Shown here: in pieces, positions 12,161 to 17,930 of the stretch | How the letters are laid out: each line of letters begins with the position of its first letter | Position numbering within the stretch: position 1 is the stretch's first letter | NCBI GenBank assembly: GCA_964352145.1 | Contig: CAYGQA010000001.1 | Coordinates: 152,617-216,616, forward strand | From: an uncultured Candidatus Peribacteria bacterium | GTDB lineage: Bacteria; Patescibacteriota; Gracilibacteria; JAUYGZ01 | Reading direction: 5' to 3' | Length of the DNA stretch: 64,000 bases | Translations under genes and position numbers: made by a program | Notes under the pieces: generated by a model | Seen by the model: only the letters and a program-made list of their open reading frames with translations | Database searches by the model: none | Told to the model about the DNA's origin: nothing

Positions 12161-13663
12161 ATGCAATCAAAATTTATGGCTGCCATTAATCAGTTGGCAT
12201 CCGAAAAAAATCTTCCTAAAGAAAAAGTCGTCGATATCGTAACCCATGCTCTCCGAGCGGCTTACCGTAAAGACTATGGGAACCGAGAACAAAATATCAA
12301 AGTCACTATCGATGAAGATACAGCGATAGCGACGGTATATATGATCAAAGAAGTCATCGGAGATGATGATGAGATGGAGTTTCCAGATCGACAGGCCACT
12401 GTGACTGAAGCGAAAAAATTTAAAAAAGATGCTAAGGTAGGGGATATCATAGAAATGGATGTCACACCTGCTGATTATGGTCGTATCGCTGCACAAAGTG
12501 CGAAACAAGTGATCATCCAACGAATACAAGAAGCTGAAAAAGATATCATCACTGATATGTATAAAGATCGAGAACATGAAATCCTCAACGGATATGTGAA
12601 TCGTGTTGAAGGACCTAATGTCTATGTCGATCTTGACCGTACTCAAGCTATCTTACGCCCACAAGATCAGATTCGACGTGAAAACTATAGCAATGGACAG
12701 CGTATTAAAGTCTATCTAGAGAAAGTGGTTGCATCTCCAAAAGGTCCTCGTCTTCTTATTTCACGTTCTCATCCAAAACTCGTGAACTGTTTGCTAGAGC
12801 TGGAAATCCCAGAAGTCAGAGAAGGAGTCGTTGAAATCAAAAATGTTGCTCGAGAAGCTGGTGTTAGATCTAAAGTAACGGTGACCTCAAATGATCCAAA
12901 TGTAGACCCTATTGGAGCTTGTGTTGGACAAAAAGGGGTTCGTATTCAGAGTATTATGGAAGAGTTTAATGGAGAACGAATCGATATCATCCAGCACTCT
13001 GAAGATGAGATCGTCATGCTTAATGCAGCTCTTGCTCCAGCAAAAATCTCTCATATTAACCTTGATGAAACCAATAAAAGAGCTCAAGTCTTCGTGCCTG
13101 TAGAGGAGAGAGCACTTGCTATCGGTAAAGGTGGTCAAAATGTTCGTTTAGCTTCAATGCTTACTGGATGGGAAATAGATATCATCGATCTCGATAAGCT
13201 TGATACTGCTACTCTTGATGAAGTGAAGAAGAAGCAGGTTGAAAACAAACTTAAAGGAGAAGATGCAAAAGGACCAAAAGCAAAACAAGAAAAAGTTGTT
13301 ATGCCTGTGGCTGCTGAAGATATTAAAGACCTTCCAGGGGTTTCAGCTGAAGTTGCTGAAAAACTTGAAGCTGCTGGATTTATGAAGAGTATCCAACTGA
13401 TGGGGCTTAACGCAGCTGCTATGACAGCTATCGAAGGGATCACTCAAGAAGAAGCTGAAATGGTTGAACAAGCTTTGAAAGGAAAACCAGAAGAACCAGC
13501 AGAAAAGGAAGCTAAAGAAAATGTTGAAACTGAAGAAAATGCAGCTGAACCTGAAGCGGCTGAAGAAGAAGTAAAGGAAAAGAAAGCAAAGAAGGTGAAA
13601 AAGGAGGAGAAGGAGGAGAAAGAGGAGAAAGAGGATGGTGAGGAAAAAGAAGAAGAGAAATAA
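12161..13663 (+). CDS. nusA: transcription termination/antitermination factor NusA with K/E-rich C-terminal tail
   Basis: N-terminal, S1 and two KH regions (IGACVGQKGVRIQ, AIGKGGQNVRLAS). Start placed at ATG 12161, because the track start at 12098 is a GTG preceding hydrophobic junk. Confidence 0.9.
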   Translation: MQSKFMAAINQLASEKNLPKEKVVDIVTHALRAAYRKDYGNREQNIKVTIDEDTAIATVYMIKEVIGDDDEMEFPDRQATVTEAKKFKKDAKVGDIIEMDVTPADYGRIAAQSAKQVIIQRIQEAEKDIITDMYKDREHEILNGYVNRVEGPNVYVDLDRTQAILRPQDQIRRENYSNGQRIKVYLEKVVASPKGPRLLISRSHPKLVNCLLELEIPEVREGVVEIKNVAREAGVRSKVTVTSNDPNVDPIGACVGQKGVRIQSIMEEFNGERIDIIQHSEDEIVMLNAALAPAKISHINLDETNKRAQVFVPVEERALAIGKGGQNVRLASMLTGWEIDIIDLDKLDTATLDEVKKKQVENKLKGEDAKGPKAKQEKVVMPVAAEDIKDLPGVSAEVAEKLEAAGFMKSIQLMGLNAAAMTAIEGITQEEAEMVEQALKGKPEEPAEKEAKENVETEENAAEPEAAEEEVKEKKAKKVKKEEKEEKEEKEDGEEKEEEK

Positions 13664-13672
13664 GACTTGATC

Positions 13673-13707
13673 AAAAAAGACGGGGATGTATATCCTCGTC
13701 TTTTTTT
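13673..13707 (+). terminator. intrinsic terminator after nusA
   Basis: GACGGGGA-N6-TCCTCGTC: an 8-bp stem with one G-U pair, followed by TTTTTTT (13701-13707). Confidence 0.7.
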
Positions 13708-13862
13708 GATAGAGAAAAACCATATATCACCTAACAATTAAAGATTCTCTATTACCTACACGATGACGAACTATGCAGACAACAGTATATCTCTCTAAAA
13801 ACACCTCTTTACTTTTTTAGCTGACTTTGAAGAGCTATACTTCTCACAAATCACTCACTCAA

Positions 13863-13980
13863 ATGCACAGAAATTCTATCATGATGATGATGCCTGTACT
13901 GCTCGACCCGAGCTAGAGTGTTTGTGAAAATTAACTTTCCTCATTCTCTTAGCTTGGCTAAGAGGAGTTTTTTATTTTAT
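13863..13980 (+). promoter_or_regulatory. candidate leader-peptide attenuator (MHRNSIMMMMPVLLDPS plus alternative hairpins plus terminator)
   Basis: Short ORF 13863-13916 has four consecutive ATG codons (13881-13892). It is followed by mutually exclusive pairings 13901-05/13909-13, 13912-18/13946-53 and 13946-53/13957-64, then a U-tract. See findings. Confidence 0.35.
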
Positions 13981-13988
13981 TTTTTCTT

Positions 13989-15050
13989 ATGTCACTTTCA
14001 AATTCACGTCTTTCATTTTTAGACGCTAACAGTAAGGATAAAGCTGTGGTGCCCAGTTCTTCTACTCAGGCTCTTCGAAATATCCCAGGACAGCTAAGCG
14101 GATGGGCATCTATACAGGATCCAGATATCCAGGGTGCTATGACCGAGCTCCATCTCCAAGATCTTCAAGCTGGAGCGAGCTTCGCTGTGACTGGCACCTG
14201 CGGTATGGGAGTAAGAAGAGTGAGAGAAAAAAATGATCTTCAGTCCTTTCCAAAAGGGATCCAAACTCTAAGTGGTCTGGAAGACTTCGTCTCTGACTCC
14301 AACGAGAAAGCCCTCAAGTCAGCACTAAGTGCTCGAGACCAATATGAACAAGAACATCAAGAAGCAGCTGCTGTGCTTGGCTCAATCGTCACGAGTAGTG
14401 ATTGCTATGACCCGAGGAAGAAAAAGCCTTTTGATCTTGGTAAGCATGGATCTCATGAGTCGGTGATAAATGCCTATAGAGAAGATCACATTGCCCAAAT
14501 ATCCGGTCTCACGAGTGACCCAAACAGGAAAGTGGATGCTCTTTTAATCGAAGCTGGAGGTGTTTCATTTCATGAGCTTTTAGCTATCGCTATGCTCTCA
14601 AGTGAATCTGAAACTCCGCTTATCGCAAGCTTAGTAGTGAATGATCAAGGAGACATCTTAGATCCTGATTTCACAGGAAGCTTGGAAGGTATTTCTCGAG
14701 AGCTACGAAGTATACTCGGCCCTCTTTTTCTTGGACTTGGACTGAACTGCAATAGCCATGAGGCCACTTTACAGGCATTACGAAAAGACAAGTCTTCTGA
14801 AATCAGGATGGTCTACCCTAACCAAGCACAGTTGAATACTGATCAAAGAGCGCGACATGCCTTTACGGAAGCTCGTAGTGCTTCAATTGATGAAGAAGTA
14901 CAATTTGCGGAGACTCTTTTGAAAGATTTTGAGCATGTATGTGTGATTGGTTGCTGTTGTAGAGATGAAAGAAGTGAAGTTCTAATTCACTCCTTTCGAC
15001 AGCTGATTGAAACTCGTTTTGCACCGATAAAGCAGCTCAGGTTCTCCTAG
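13989..15050 (+). CDS. homocysteine S-methyltransferase-family (Hcy-binding domain) protein
   Basis: PF02574-like landmarks: LQAGASFAVTGT (AGAdiixTnT), GLNC (Zn Cys), MVYPNQA (vyPNaG) and IGCCC (GGCC Zn Cys pair). Confidence 0.55.
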   Translation: MSLSNSRLSFLDANSKDKAVVPSSSTQALRNIPGQLSGWASIQDPDIQGAMTELHLQDLQAGASFAVTGTCGMGVRRVREKNDLQSFPKGIQTLSGLEDFVSDSNEKALKSALSARDQYEQEHQEAAAVLGSIVTSSDCYDPRKKKPFDLGKHGSHESVINAYREDHIAQISGLTSDPNRKVDALLIEAGGVSFHELLAIAMLSSESETPLIASLVVNDQGDILDPDFTGSLEGISRELRSILGPLFLGLGLNCNSHEATLQALRKDKSSEIRMVYPNQAQLNTDQRARHAFTEARSASIDEEVQFAETLLKDFEHVCVIGCCCRDERSEVLIHSFRQLIETRFAPIKQLRFS

Positions 15051-15082: not shown

Positions 15083-15466
15083 ATGAGTCACCTTTCTGTC
15101 ACAAAAATTTTTGAATTTGCTGCATCACATTTCCTTACCAAATATCATGGAAAATGTGAAAACTTACATGGCCACAACTATAAACTAGAAGTGACTGTAG
15201 TAGGTGAATTAAATGAAGATGACTTGGTGCTGGACTTTGTTCTTTTGAAAAAAATAGTCAAAGAGAAGATCATAGATAAGCTCGATCATACTCACTTGAA
15301 TGATACATTTGACAACCCTTCGGCAGAAGTTATCGCCATATGGATCTGGGAGCAACTTGAGTCAGAGCTCAGTTTGCATGAGATCAAACTCTGGGAAACG
15401 TCGACCTGTTTTGTCACTTACCGTGGAAAAAATGGATTCAATAGTCCTCAGCCTGGGAACAAATAA
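15083..15466 (+). CDS. 6-pyruvoyl-tetrahydropterin synthase / QueD-family protein (possible FolB-replacing PTPS-III type)
   Basis: Motifs FAASHFL, KCENLHGHNYKLEV and LDHTHLND. Its last 35 nt overlap the folK start. Confidence 0.8.
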   Translation: MSHLSVTKIFEFAASHFLTKYHGKCENLHGHNYKLEVTVVGELNEDDLVLDFVLLKKIVKEKIIDKLDHTHLNDTFDNPSAEVIAIWIWEQLESELSLHEIKLWETSTCFVTYRGKNGFNSPQPGNK

Positions 15467-15914
15467 AGGAGATCGAGAAGCTTATCTAGAGCAAGCTCAT
15501 GAGCTTCTCAAAGGTAAAGGGATCTCTGTCCTTAAAGCATCTTCAGTCTACGAATCAGAACCTGTTGGGTATGCTGATCAGGGTGACTTTTTAAATCAGC
15601 TCCTTATAGTAGAGACGACATTAAAGTCAGAAGAGTTGCTCAAAACTTGTCTTGGCATAGAATCAGAAATGGGAAGAGTAAGAAGCATTAAAAATGGCCC
15701 AAGAGTCATTGATATAGACCTTCTTTTTTATCATGATGAAGTATCTGACAAGGAAGATCTTATCTTACCTCACCCTAGGATATCAGAACGTCTCTTTGTC
15801 TTAATCCCATTAGTGGAATTACTCGCTCATGAAATACACCCAATAATAGGGGTCAGCTCTCAAAAATTATTAGAGAACTGCAAAGATCAGAGCAAAGTGG
15901 AAAAATACAAGTAA
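15432..15914 (+). CDS. folK: 2-amino-4-hydroxy-6-hydroxymethyldihydropteridine diphosphokinase (HPPK)
   Basis: Motifs LGTNKGD, YESEPVG, NGPRVIDIDLL and LILPHPRISERLFVLIPL. Start set at ATG 15432, because the track ORF beginning at 15300 starts inside the PTPS gene. Confidence 0.85.
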   Translation: MDSIVLSLGTNKGDREAYLEQAHELLKGKGISVLKASSVYESEPVGYADQGDFLNQLLIVETTLKSEELLKTCLGIESEMGRVRSIKNGPRVIDIDLLFYHDEVSDKEDLILPHPRISERLFVLIPLVELLAHEIHPIIGVSSQKLLENCKDQSKVEKYK

Positions 15915-15986: not shown

Positions 15987-16014
15987 TTGAAATATACTTA
16001 ATTTATCGTATACT
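15987..16014 (+). promoter_or_regulatory. candidate promoter (TTGAAA-16-TATACT)
   Basis: TTGAAA 15987-15992, 16-nt spacer, TATACT 16009-16014. folE ATG at 16039. Confidence 0.4.
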
Positions 16015-16038: not shown

Positions 16039-16632
16039 ATGAACCATTCTCTCAAACAGATTGTAGAAAAGATGCCAACTCCTGGAATGAGTGAAGAGAC
16101 TTTTAAAGAATGGATTCGATCACTTGGAGAAGATCCTGAAAGAGAAGGTCTCCAAGATACCTATCGCCGTTTCACCGAGAGTCGACAAGAGCTCTTCTCT
16201 GGATACCATGTCGACCCCGCTTCAGTGATGACGCTTTTTGATTCTGAAGGATATGATGAGATGGTCATCTGTCGTGACATCGATTTTTTTTCTACCTGTG
16301 AGCACCACTTGCTGCCATTTTATGGACGTGCACATATCGGATATATCCCTGATAAGAAGATCGTTGGATTATCTAAATTTTCTCGAGTGATAGACGTCTT
16401 CGCAAGACGCATGCAAAACCAAGAACGACTGACTACTCAGATTGCTGACTTCTTCATGGAGCAGCTCAAGCCTAGGGGCCTAGGAGTCATCCTTGAAGCA
16501 GAACATCTATGTATCAAATCAAGAGGAGCAGACAAACAAAACTCTGAAGTAACGACTTCATCATTTCAAGGACTCCTCAAGAAACGACCAGAAACCCGCT
16601 CAGAGTTTCTTCATCTCGTTCGCAAATCTTAA
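16039..16632 (+). CDS. folE: GTP cyclohydrolase I
   Basis: Motifs STCEHHLLPFYG, HIGYIP and RRMQNQERLT. Confidence 0.9.
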   Translation: MNHSLKQIVEKMPTPGMSEETFKEWIRSLGEDPEREGLQDTYRRFTESRQELFSGYHVDPASVMTLFDSEGYDEMVICRDIDFFSTCEHHLLPFYGRAHIGYIPDKKIVGLSKFSRVIDVFARRMQNQERLTTQIADFFMEQLKPRGLGVILEAEHLCIKSRGADKQNSEVTTSSFQGLLKKRPETRSEFLHLVRKS

Positions 16633-16634
16633 GT

Positions 16635-17930
16635 ATGAATCTCCAGATTAATCAGCTTGATATTCCTCACAGCCCACGCGAGCTTTTTTTGATGATTCCT
16701 GATGAAATTACAGGACTCGTGTACTTCTCTAGTGATGGATCTGAAGGCTCTCGATACAGTGTGATCGCTATGAATCCGGTAGAACAGTTCCGCTATGATG
16801 GTTCTCAAGTGTGGAGAAATGGGGAAAAAAGTGACAGAAGTTTTCATGAACTCATGAATGAGATCCTACGAGAGAGAAAAATCACAGCAAAGAGTCATCT
16901 CCCTTTTTTGGGAGGGCTGATTGGATCGATCGACTATGAATATGGATACGAATTAATGCAGCTGCCTAAAGCTCCAATGGGAGATCATCAAGTCTTCTGG
17001 AATGTCTACGACCATCTGCTTATCTTTGATCACCAAGAGAGTATATGGTCAGAAGTACTGAGATCCGAGACGCCAGCTTTTGCTTGGAGAGAATGGCCTG
17101 AGAGAAGAGAGAAGAAAAATCATGCTCTACAACTACAAGCCCTTTGGGATGAAGAGCAATATACCGAAGCCTTTCAAGAGGTCCATAAAAATATCCAAAA
17201 AGGGGAGATCTACCAGGCTTGTTTAAGCTTTCCTTTTGAAGGACCACAAGTACAGAGACCCCGGGAATCTTTTACTGAATTGATCGAGAGAAACCCAGCA
17301 CCCATGGCAGCTTATCTCGAGCAAGGGGACCGACAAATCCTCAGCCTGTCTCCAGAACGGTTCCTTCATTGGGATGGCTCTCGTATAGAAACAAAACCCA
17401 TCAAAGGGACTCGACCTCGTTCTTCAGATCCTTCAGAAGACTTGAAAATGCAGAAAGAACTTTTAGAAGATGAGAAAGAACGAGCTGAACTCAATATGAT
17501 CACTGATTTATTGAGGAATGATCTGTCCCAAGTCTGTGAAGCTGGCACCGTGCAAGTCTTGCTTCATCATGCCTTACAGACTTGTCCTAGTATCTGGCAT
17601 ACTTATTCACATATCGTCGGTAAAACGAAGCAGGGGATATCAGCTTGGGATATCATTCGGAAGACTTTCCCTGGAGGGTCTATCAGTGGATGTCCGAAGA
17701 GAAGAGCTTTAGAGATCCTAAGAGACTTAGAACATTCTCCTCGAGGGGTTTATACCGGTTGTATCGGATATATCAGTGACCATGGTCAGATGGACTTGAA
17801 TATTGCCATTCGCACACTAGAAAACAAGCCAACAGCAGTACGAGCAAGTTTTGGAGGAGGTATCGTCTACGATTCAGAAGCTAAAAGGGAATATCAGGAA
17901 TGTTATGATAAGGCTCGCATTTTTTTATAG
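16635..17930 (+). CDS. pabB: aminodeoxychorismate synthase component I (chorismate-binding enzyme)
   Basis: Motifs ERAELNMITDLLRNDL, FPGGSISGCPKRRALEIL and RGVYTGCIGY. The folate gene context favours PabB over TrpE. Confidence 0.8.
   Translation: MNLQINQLDIPHSPRELFLMIPDEITGLVYFSSDGSEGSRYSVIAMNPVEQFRYDGSQVWRNGEKSDRSFHELMNEILRERKITAKSHLPFLGGLIGSIDYEYGYELMQLPKAPMGDHQVFWNVYDHLLIFDHQESIWSEVLRSETPAFAWREWPERREKKNHALQLQALWDEEQYTEAFQEVHKNIQKGEIYQACLSFPFEGPQVQRPRESFTELIERNPAPMAAYLEQGDRQILSLSPERFLHWDGSRIETKPIKGTRPRSSDPSEDLKMQKELLEDEKERAELNMITDLLRNDLSQVCEAGTVQVLLHHALQTCPSIWHTYSHIVGKTKQGISAWDIIRKTFPGGSISGCPKRRALEILRDLEHSPRGVYTGCIGYISDHGQMDLNIAIRTLENKPTAVRASFGGGIVYDSEAKREYQECYDKARIFL

Follow-up and report, generated by a model that had tools for sequence, protein, structure and literature searches.

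A candidate methionine-codon leader-peptide attenuator upstream of a homocysteine S-methyltransferase-family gene and folate genes in an uncultured Candidatus Peribacteria bacterium

The window analysed here is a 64,000-nucleotide stretch of the genome of an uncultured Candidatus Peribacteria bacterium (assembly GCA_964352145.1, contig CAYGQA010000001.1, forward-strand positions 152,617 to 216,616), and coordinates given without a locus name count from its first letter. Between nusA and a folate operon headed by the gene for a divergent homocysteine S-methyltransferase-family protein (P0001) lies a modular element of ~125 nt, in which a short open reading frame (ORF) containing four consecutive Met codons is followed by three alternative RNA pairings. 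Sequence features, conservation, covariation, energetics and genomic logic were computed directly, and they indicate that the element is probably (with a rough probability of 0.8) a ribosome-mediated leader-peptide transcription attenuator reading the supply of charged elongator tRNA-Met. From the upstream terminator to the first regulated gene, the features of the locus are:

13679-13707, plus strand: nusA's own intrinsic terminator, GACGGGGAT-GTAT-ATCCTCGTC then T7, from a hairpin/T-run scan; it parts nusA from the leader unit
13813-13841, plus strand: candidate promoter of the leader transcript, with a -10 (TATACT) at 13836-13841 and a weak -35 (TTTTTA/TTTTTT)
13863-13916, plus strand: leader peptide ORF MHRNSIMMMMPVLLDPS, 17 codons, from ATG 13863 to stop TAG 13914-13916, with homologous ORFs in seven other species
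13881-13892, plus strand: regulatory codons, four consecutive in-frame AUG (Met); the run ends 7 codons before the stop
13901-13913, plus strand: helix 1:2, a small hairpin GCUCG-ACC-CGAGC, -6.7 kcal/mol, covarying with CCGC-N5-GCGG of relatives
13907-13918, plus strand: segment 2, the antiterminator 5' strand, spanning the leader stop UAG 13914-13916; top 12-nt partner of the terminator 5' arm
13944-13956, plus strand: segment 3, terminator 5' arm and loop, pairing with segment 2 or segment 4 (terminator scan, folding)
13957-13987, plus strand: segment 4, terminator 3' arm GCUAAGAGGA and U-tract GUUUUUUAUUUUAUUUUUUCUU, reaching the start codon
13989-15050, plus strand: P0001, divergent homocysteine S-methyltransferase-family protein (Pfam PF02574), 353 aa, first regulated gene

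The leader ORF, the four Met codons and the three pairings had been proposed in a first-pass annotation of this DNA, and all were confirmed in the sequence. The strands of helix 1:2 are GCTCG at 13901-13905 and CGAGC at 13909-13913. GCTAGAG at 13912-13918 is complementary to CTCTTAGC at 13946-13953, which also pairs with GCTAAGAG at 13957-13964. The terminator hairpin formed by the last of these pairings (13944-13966; 10 pairs, a loop of 3, then GTTTTTTATT) has an energy of -12.0 kcal/mol, was found independently by a terminator scan and is included in the minimum free energy (MFE) fold, and its U-tract ends at 13987, just before ATG 13989.

The element is shared by eight further species (nine in total), always in the interval between nusA and the folate operon. 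Whether relatives conserve the peptide and the helices had been put forward as the decisive test of the proposal; the test was run on the nine species, and the proposal passed it. Relatives of P0001 number five in a 5.8-billion-protein collection (39-42% identity), plus one in G002, a genome of the same family, and all are encoded behind nusA and before the same folate genes. A protein-pattern scan of genome contigs with P0001 gave no match. Five copies of the element were reached via orthologues ~40% identical to P0001, and the first-gene proteins of the element-bearing relatives have ~40% identity or less. Upstream of the genes for the P0001 relatives the order is a promoter-like site, a G-poor leader of 11-21 nt lacking a Shine-Dalgarno (SD) motif, the small ORF, and a CCGC-N5-GCGG mini-hairpin that runs into the TAG/TAA stop and AG(U/A)GUUU, followed by a spacer, a CUCCUCU...AGAGGAG hairpin and 6-8 U.

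A covariance model (R1), built from a hand-made alignment (A6) and run over 400 genomes of the class, returned three more strong matches within the same family, in G004 (64 bits), G003 (59 bits) and G005 (43 bits), again between nusA and the folate operon. The P0001 search had given no match in these three genomes, and their elements were found by the covariance model only. In G004 and G005 a more canonical PF02574 protein is encoded at the head of the folate operon; in G003 (L054:694-1558, plus strand) the place of first regulated gene is taken by an ORF of 245 aa that has no Pfam match and resembles neither P0001 nor G004's unknown second gene, and the folate genes come next. The element is absent from the folate operons of G001 and G006 (same family) and of G007 and G008 (sister family). 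At the G001 locus (L067:1040-2221, plus strand), the 105-nt spacer after nusA holds neither a leader nor a terminator, and the PF02574 gene that comes next is of a more canonical type (91.6 bits); this difference within one genus suggests replacement of both the first gene and its control region. Weak class-wide matches of the model (E = 1e-4 to 1e-2, 11 genomes) were mostly terminators or coding sequence and were excluded as members. Matches of the DNA pattern TAGAGWGTT-N25-50-AGAGGAGTTTTTT (8 in genome contigs and 16 in metagenome contigs) all fell in coding sequence or in unrelated terminators without a leader, and were dismissed as chance.

Eight of the leaders are complete, the ninth copy (L009) being cut by a contig end, and their peptides are:

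Window: MHRNSIMMMMPVLLDPS
G002: MNTVQSVMISMMLPHLPRLKR
L006: MHSQAIMMMLIMTESRQQR
L008: MHRPSPSMMMMSELRTPR
L010: MNFSNFMMNMMMSELRSPR
G004: MNQTLNTIIMMMSSTICLKR
G003: MNPTAHTHMAMMMMMSMPRPPR
G005: MNFQTSQTMMSMMMSMRCPPR

Start, Met run and stop lie in a single frame in all eight, with runs of 3-7 Met codons. Run and stop are 7 codons apart in six leaders and 8 and 9 codons apart in the other two, and length differences are multiples of three. The non-Met residues drift freely, and Met accounts for 36 of the 149 internal leader codons (24%; eight species) as compared to 2.16% of codons in the genome's long ORFs, an enrichment whose nominal P of 4e-27 is only indicative, the leader sequences being related. 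The plainest alternative is that a chance (ATG)4 repeat happens to lie beside an ordinary terminator, or beside the terminator of an unrelated small transcript; the first-pass annotation had itself cautioned that the Met run might be a cryptic simple repeat, since short repeats are common in the spacers of this genome. However, the whole 1.63-Mb genome has just 7 occurrences of (ATG)4, counting both strands, and the run is therefore not one of the common spacer repeats. Moreover, the covariance model matches the window's genome exactly once, and the module is conserved in the eight further species with compensatory changes, covarying across all nine. A chance origin is thus extremely improbable, and the caution no longer applies.

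The compensatory changes are clearest for helices 1:2 and 3:4. In a model-guided alignment of the nine sequences these helices are 96.8% paired, 12 of their 17 pairs have changed on both sides, and for each of five measures 0 of 500 shuffles came up to the observed value; when the 3' partner is slid by 1-3 columns, pairing drops to 42-60%. A hand alignment of six sequences gave a similar covariation result for the same two helices. Both alignments were fitted to the structure and thus favour it, but the slid controls are nevertheless specific. The terminator itself is present, and covaries, in 9/9 species. The window holds the most divergent copy, with GCUCG/CGAGC in helix 1:2 as compared to CCGC/GCGG in relatives, and terminator arms CUCUUAGC/GCUAAGAG as compared to CUCCUCU(N)/(N)AGAGGAG. 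Segments 2 and 4 have therefore changed together with segment 3, and the copy that differs most from the others is for that reason the most informative one.

Pairing between segments 2 and 3 was assessed with a register-free test, in which a 12-nt frame was slid across the whole upstream region (75-143 nt) and scored against the terminator 5' arm and loop. In 6/6 first-round species the top-scoring 12-mer has its first nucleotide 4-7 nt ahead of the leader stop, with energies of -10 to -13 kcal/mol as compared to medians of -1 to -3 (in the window, -11.3 kcal/mol as compared to -1.7). It starts 2-3 nt before the stop in G003 and G005, and the stop is spanned in 8/9 species overall. Across species, helix energies run from -5 to -7 kcal/mol for 1:2, from -12 to -18 kcal/mol for 2:3, and from -7.5 to -24 kcal/mol for 3:4.

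RNA-level conservation of the alternative helices and of the string UAGAGUGUUU that follows the stop codon would also suit an RNA switch that binds a ligand or protein (for example S-adenosylmethionine (SAM), folate or tRNA) and in which the small ORF is untranslated. Such a switch is very improbable here. An Rfam cmscan of 13000-15000 at E <= 10 returned no leader, riboswitch (SAM and tetrahydrofolate (THF) included) or T-box family, only sub-threshold chance matches; just ~50 nt separate the Met run from the terminator, with no conserved multi-helix core; sequence conservation does not extend beyond Met codons and helices; and start, run and stop are kept in frame, with length changes in steps of three.

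How the ribosome's position would act on these helices was examined by folding the transcript to the end of the terminator 3' arm with its 5' part masked to the ribosome front edge, set at the first nucleotide of the A site + 12. When the A site is placed at the run's final Met codon, the antiterminator is the MFE structure in the five species folded. With the ribosome on the stop codon, the terminator hairpin alone forms, as the first-pass annotation had predicted for a ribosome in that position. G003 and G005 form a longer antiterminator, in which CGCCCACCG of the leader also pairs with CGGUGGGCG of the terminator 3' arm; it is the MFE structure for every stall on the main Met run, but not for an isolated later Met codon, and it is destroyed once the ribosome reaches the stop. 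The companion prediction, that a ribosome stalled on the Met codons covers segment 1 and favours the antiterminator, stands for the last Met codon or codons but not for the earlier ones, from which segment 1 is not reached. Without a ribosome, the MFE of the window's element is helix 1:2 plus the terminator. The proposed 1:2 / 2:3 / 3:4 attenuator topology is accordingly backed by conservation, covariation and the masked folds together.

Leader translation, stalling, premature termination and a response to methionine we infer from these comparative and thermodynamic results, which point to the following sequence of events. Transcription would start ~12-15 nt upstream of the leader AUG, and the leader would be translated without an SD. 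When Met-tRNA is plentiful, the ribosome would reach the UAG at 13914-13916 and cover segment 2 (13907-18), leaving segments 3 and 4 to form the terminator (13944-13966 and the U-tract), and RNA polymerase would halt before ATG 13989. When Met-tRNA is scarce, the ribosome would stall on the four AUG codons at 13881-13892, and from the last of them its front edge would melt the short 1:2 hairpin. The freed segment 2 could then pair with the emerging terminator 5' arm and block the terminator, so that the homocysteine S-methyltransferase-family gene and the folate genes would be transcribed. With no ribosome nearby, helix 1:2 would sequester the antiterminator strand.

The window's -10 hexamer, TATACT, sits 21 nt before the leader ATG, and the 5' untranslated region between promoter and leader is short and without any G. 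In 8/8 complete leaders the ATG is preceded, at a distance of 18-28 nt, by a -10 hexamer, with 8-11 of 12 consensus matches, and good promoters occupy the equivalent position in G003 (TTGACG-16-TATAAT) and G002 (TTGACG-17-TATACT). A stricter promoter scan of the window did not list the leader's candidate site. The first-pass annotation had found neither a convincing promoter nor an SD. Both reservations are resolved, the former by a -10 located where relatives have good promoters (the window's own -35 being weak), the latter by the finding that SD-less starts are normal genome-wide. SD-like motifs are depleted upstream of long-ORF starts (31/895 at -18 to -5 as compared to 76/895 in a control interval), G makes up ~10% of the 25 nt before start codons, and T occupies -1 in 51% of genes. 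Translation initiation in this genome is evidently SD-independent, judging from these start regions, and, given the depletion, an SD-less leader ORF is therefore the norm. A genome search for the 16S 3'-end motif gave no match. The motif AAGAGGAG at 13960-13967 was considered as an SD of the downstream gene and rejected, since its distance to the ATG is 21 nt and SD motifs are avoided in this genome.

Downstream of P0001 lie the folate genes:

15083-15914, plus strand: PTPS-family gene (15083-15466) and HPPK/folK (15432-15914), co-transcribed with P0001
16039-17930, plus strand: folE, GTP cyclohydrolase I (16039-16632), and pabB (16635-17930), with their own promoter-like site at 15987-16014

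P0001 matches PF02574 with 55.9 bits (cut-off 22; E = 8e-15). Its profile score above the gathering threshold, the cysteine of G-[LI]-N-C and the cysteine pair of G-x-C-C place it in this family. The zinc triad Cys254/Cys323/Cys324 is invariant in six orthologues, bearing out the zinc-cysteine landmarks of the homocysteine-binding domain that had been recognized in the first pass. The protein distantly matches MmuM (5dml), with its zinc cysteines aligning to the LGINC and GGCC motifs there. Its score falls far below every NCBIfam equivalog cut-off, and it belongs to a very small, isolated branch of PF02574 (5 clusters in the 5.8-billion-protein collection), sharing 24% identity with the canonical-type proteins that G004 encodes at this locus. 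A conserved N-terminal motif, VPSSSTAAL, was not seen in MmuM. The idea that P0001 is a disguised FolP was rejected, as the clusters already contain a normal FolP (Pterin_bind).

No terminator-like site was found between 13989 and 15914, and folE and pabB are probably reached by read-through. HPPK and folE are separated by 125 nt, which hold the promoter-like site at 15987-16014 (TTGAAA-16-TATACT), and the distal folate genes may thus have an attenuator-independent start as well. PabC and FolP are present in the folate clusters of relatives. MetK and HPPK are found in 9/9 genomes of the order (G000-G008); in the window's genome, metK and the S-adenosylhomocysteine hydrolase gene ahcY are adjacent outside the window (G000:C5:29460-31856, minus strand), and together with P0001 their products would make up a methyl cycle. 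MTHFR (PF02219) and MetE (PF01717) were not found in any of the nine genomes. PF02574 occurs at most once per genome of the order, as the first gene of the folate operon, with P0001 being the only match in the window's genome; MetH is therefore absent too. With no MetE, MTHFR, MetH or second PF02574 protein, P0001 is therefore the only candidate enzyme for converting homocysteine to methionine, and a switch that reads Met-tRNA would fit this role.

When the whole genome was scanned for small ORFs that encode an amino-acid run and precede a hairpin and T-run, two further candidates emerged besides the Met leader, both outside the window. One is a Phe/Tyr-codon leader, MNTFSNFYGYFFFFS, followed by the terminator CTTCTCAGATCGAGAAG+T7 (L078:3501-3609, minus strand, = G000:C21); it stands directly upstream of pheA (CM_2+PDT, chorismate mutase-prephenate dehydratase), tyrA (prephenate dehydrogenase) and the DAHP synthase gene (aroG), and its start, MNTFSNF, resembles those of the relatives' Met leaders (MNFSNF..., MNTVQS...). 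The other is a Thr-codon leader, MFQQINSTTTTSTLC, with a terminator (L079:3501-3614, minus strand, = G000:C13), upstream of a glyoxalase-like gene and thrS (threonyl-tRNA synthetase), and hence a candidate attenuator of an aminoacyl-tRNA synthetase gene; its post-stop sequence, GAGGUCGAUC, pairs with the terminator 5' arm. In both leaders the sequence at or just after the stop is complementary to the terminator 5' arm, masked folds switch as they do for the Met leader, and the identity of the codons matches the function of the target genes. These matching codons provide the strongest internal argument that the Met run, too, can be taken at face value. An MNxxxN start and a common architecture are shared by the Met, Phe and Thr leaders, which may form one paralogous family retargeted by swaps of the codon run. 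The aromatic amino-acid and folate pathways seen in this genome are somewhat at odds with a patescibacterial affiliation.

The sister leaders also bear on the possibility that the element is a small upstream ORF coupled to a terminator, sensing general translation capacity or the coupling of transcription to translation, with Met codons that are incidental or merely slow the ribosome. The switch does depend on ribosome position alone, and helix 1:2 is weak. Yet Met is enriched 11-fold across the eight leaders while the surrounding codons drift, the two sister attenuators carry codon runs that match their target genes, and the first regulated gene is the only candidate for making methionine, which leaves general translation sensing quite improbable.

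Two of the weaker matches of the covariance model cover small ORFs ahead of a hairpin and T-run. In G104, from another family of the class (L050 / L056:5837-5945, minus strand), a 26.5-bit match covers a small ORF, MILYSHSHFVLNTTNNNRLTR, that ends in CGG-TAG-AGAGTTTTG, as in the Met leaders, and precedes a hairpin and T-run, with only small ORFs downstream; this may be an Asn-codon relative of the attenuator type. In G343 (L042 / L057:5729-5825, minus strand), a 34-bit match covers the small ORF MFCNKNLSTPPYLNFMKR, which has an attenuator-like layout and no obvious codon run, and whose stop region, GAAGAGGTAGA, mimics the 3' arm of the next terminator, AAATCCCTCT-TCAG-TAGAGGGATTT+T6.

Several observations weigh against an attenuator of elongator Met-tRNA supply. 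The fixed-column covariation count of helix 2:3 is not significant (93/500 shuffles), because the register varies between species, and a permutation of own versus cross duplexes is only marginal (39/720), because five relatives share one segment 2. G004 lacks a convincing 2:3 pairing, its top 12-mer not lying at the stop. Helix 1:2, conserved and covarying as it is, has only 4-5 bp and is weak, and in the window segment 1 is reached only by a ribosome stalled at the fourth Met codon, one at the third still giving 1:2 plus the terminator as the MFE. In five of the eight complete leaders (G002, L008, L010, G003 and G005) the ribosome-free MFE already contains the antiterminator, and the rule of trp attenuation that no translation means termination may therefore fail there; kinetics would decide. 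The window's own promoter has a weak -35, and the kinship of the species means that P-values overstate independence. Among the genomes, G003 keeps the leader, with the most internal Met of all (7), yet has no PF02574 gene anywhere in its genome, and G001, of the same genus, has a folate operon with PF02574 first but without the leader. Finally, MTHFR was not found, and without it there is no obvious source of methyl-THF, so that the folate half of the operon sits awkwardly under methionine control.

Some of these points would be accommodated if the leader sensed initiation rather than elongation. The AUG codons of the run, all in frame with the stop, would then be alternative starts, any of which would deliver a ribosome to segment 2, and leader occupancy would report formyl-Met-tRNAfMet, a product of methionine and 10-formyl-THF. 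With little fMet-tRNA the leader would go untranslated, the antiterminator would persist, and the Met-forming enzyme and folate genes would be made. The regulated genes supply both inputs to fMet-tRNA, folate would matter even where, lacking MTHFR, it is not obviously required for methionine synthesis, the leader of G003 stands before folate genes in a genome with no PF02574 gene, and the antiterminator is the ribosome-free MFE in those same five leaders. On the other hand, each of the eight leaders has, 6-9 codons upstream of the run, a separate start codon followed by a conserved second residue (M-N/H); the run-to-stop distance of 7-9 codons fits the footprint of a stalled ribosome on segment 1 and is unneeded for initiation; the ribosome-free MFE in the window is 1:2 plus the terminator; and the Phe and Thr leaders share the layout with elongation codons. 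Initiation sensing is distinctly unlikely on this balance, and it is likewise unlikely that the AUG run reports formyl-Met-tRNAfMet in any capacity, whether in place of elongator Met-tRNA or in addition to it. If true, this reading would explain both a Met leader over a folate operon without MTHFR and the persistence of the G003 leader after loss of the methyltransferase, and would make the element the first attenuator to sense a cofactor via start-codon decoding.

Read as an attenuator of elongator Met-tRNA, the element has the hallmarks of trpL, hisL, pheL, leuL, thrL and ilvL of E. coli and Salmonella: a short ORF with a run of end-product codons, mutually exclusive 1:2, 2:3 and 3:4 helices, an intrinsic terminator directly before the first structural gene, and a stop placed so that the terminating ribosome blocks segment 2. 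Unlike these classical attenuators, its sensing codons are Met (AUG), it has no SD, and its targets are a PF02574 enzyme and folate-biosynthesis genes; helix 1:2 is limited to 4-5 bp, and segment 1 lies downstream of the regulatory codons instead of containing them. It also has no sequence match to the Rfam Trp, His, Leu and Thr leader families.

To our knowledge, methionine genes have been described as being under the control of SAM riboswitches, Met T-boxes, MetJ/MetR or MtaR, and methionine serves as the textbook example of an amino acid governed by riboswitches, T-boxes or repressors and not by codon-reading attenuation. Full-text literature searches for a methionine-codon leader peptide or attenuator found nothing relevant. 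Like the SAM riboswitches (S-box and others) and Met T-boxes, the present element would choose between terminator and antiterminator in a 5' leader and would serve to raise the methionine supply; unlike them, its sensor would be a ribosome translating Met codons, not the binding of SAM or of uncharged tRNA. A survey of Actinobacteria identified attenuators or candidate leader peptides for trp, ilvB and cys, plus trpS and leuS of Streptomyces, and saw no RNA element for methionine operons (PMC1262725). Those cases also draw on comparative-genomics evidence and extend leader-peptide attenuation to a further amino acid, Cys, and to aminoacyl-tRNA synthetase genes, as for the Thr leader before thrS here, but they concern another lineage and other amino acids, and their Cys leaders lack terminators, in contrast to the complete terminator/antiterminator set at this locus.

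A conserved Met-codon attenuator would fill a gap in the amino-acid specificities of codon-reading attenuation. What would be new is the Met specificity and the target, a homocysteine methyltransferase together with folate biosynthesis, the mechanism itself being classical. Small and modular, the element is amenable to direct reporter testing. It would also assign a function to a very divergent PF02574 enzyme, since a gene induced by shortage of Met-tRNA should make methionine, and the regulatory link that it suggests between methionine status and de novo folate synthesis would be unexpected. More broadly, classical attenuation would operate in an SD-less, uncultured lineage of reduced genome, with at least three such switches, for Met, Phe and Thr.

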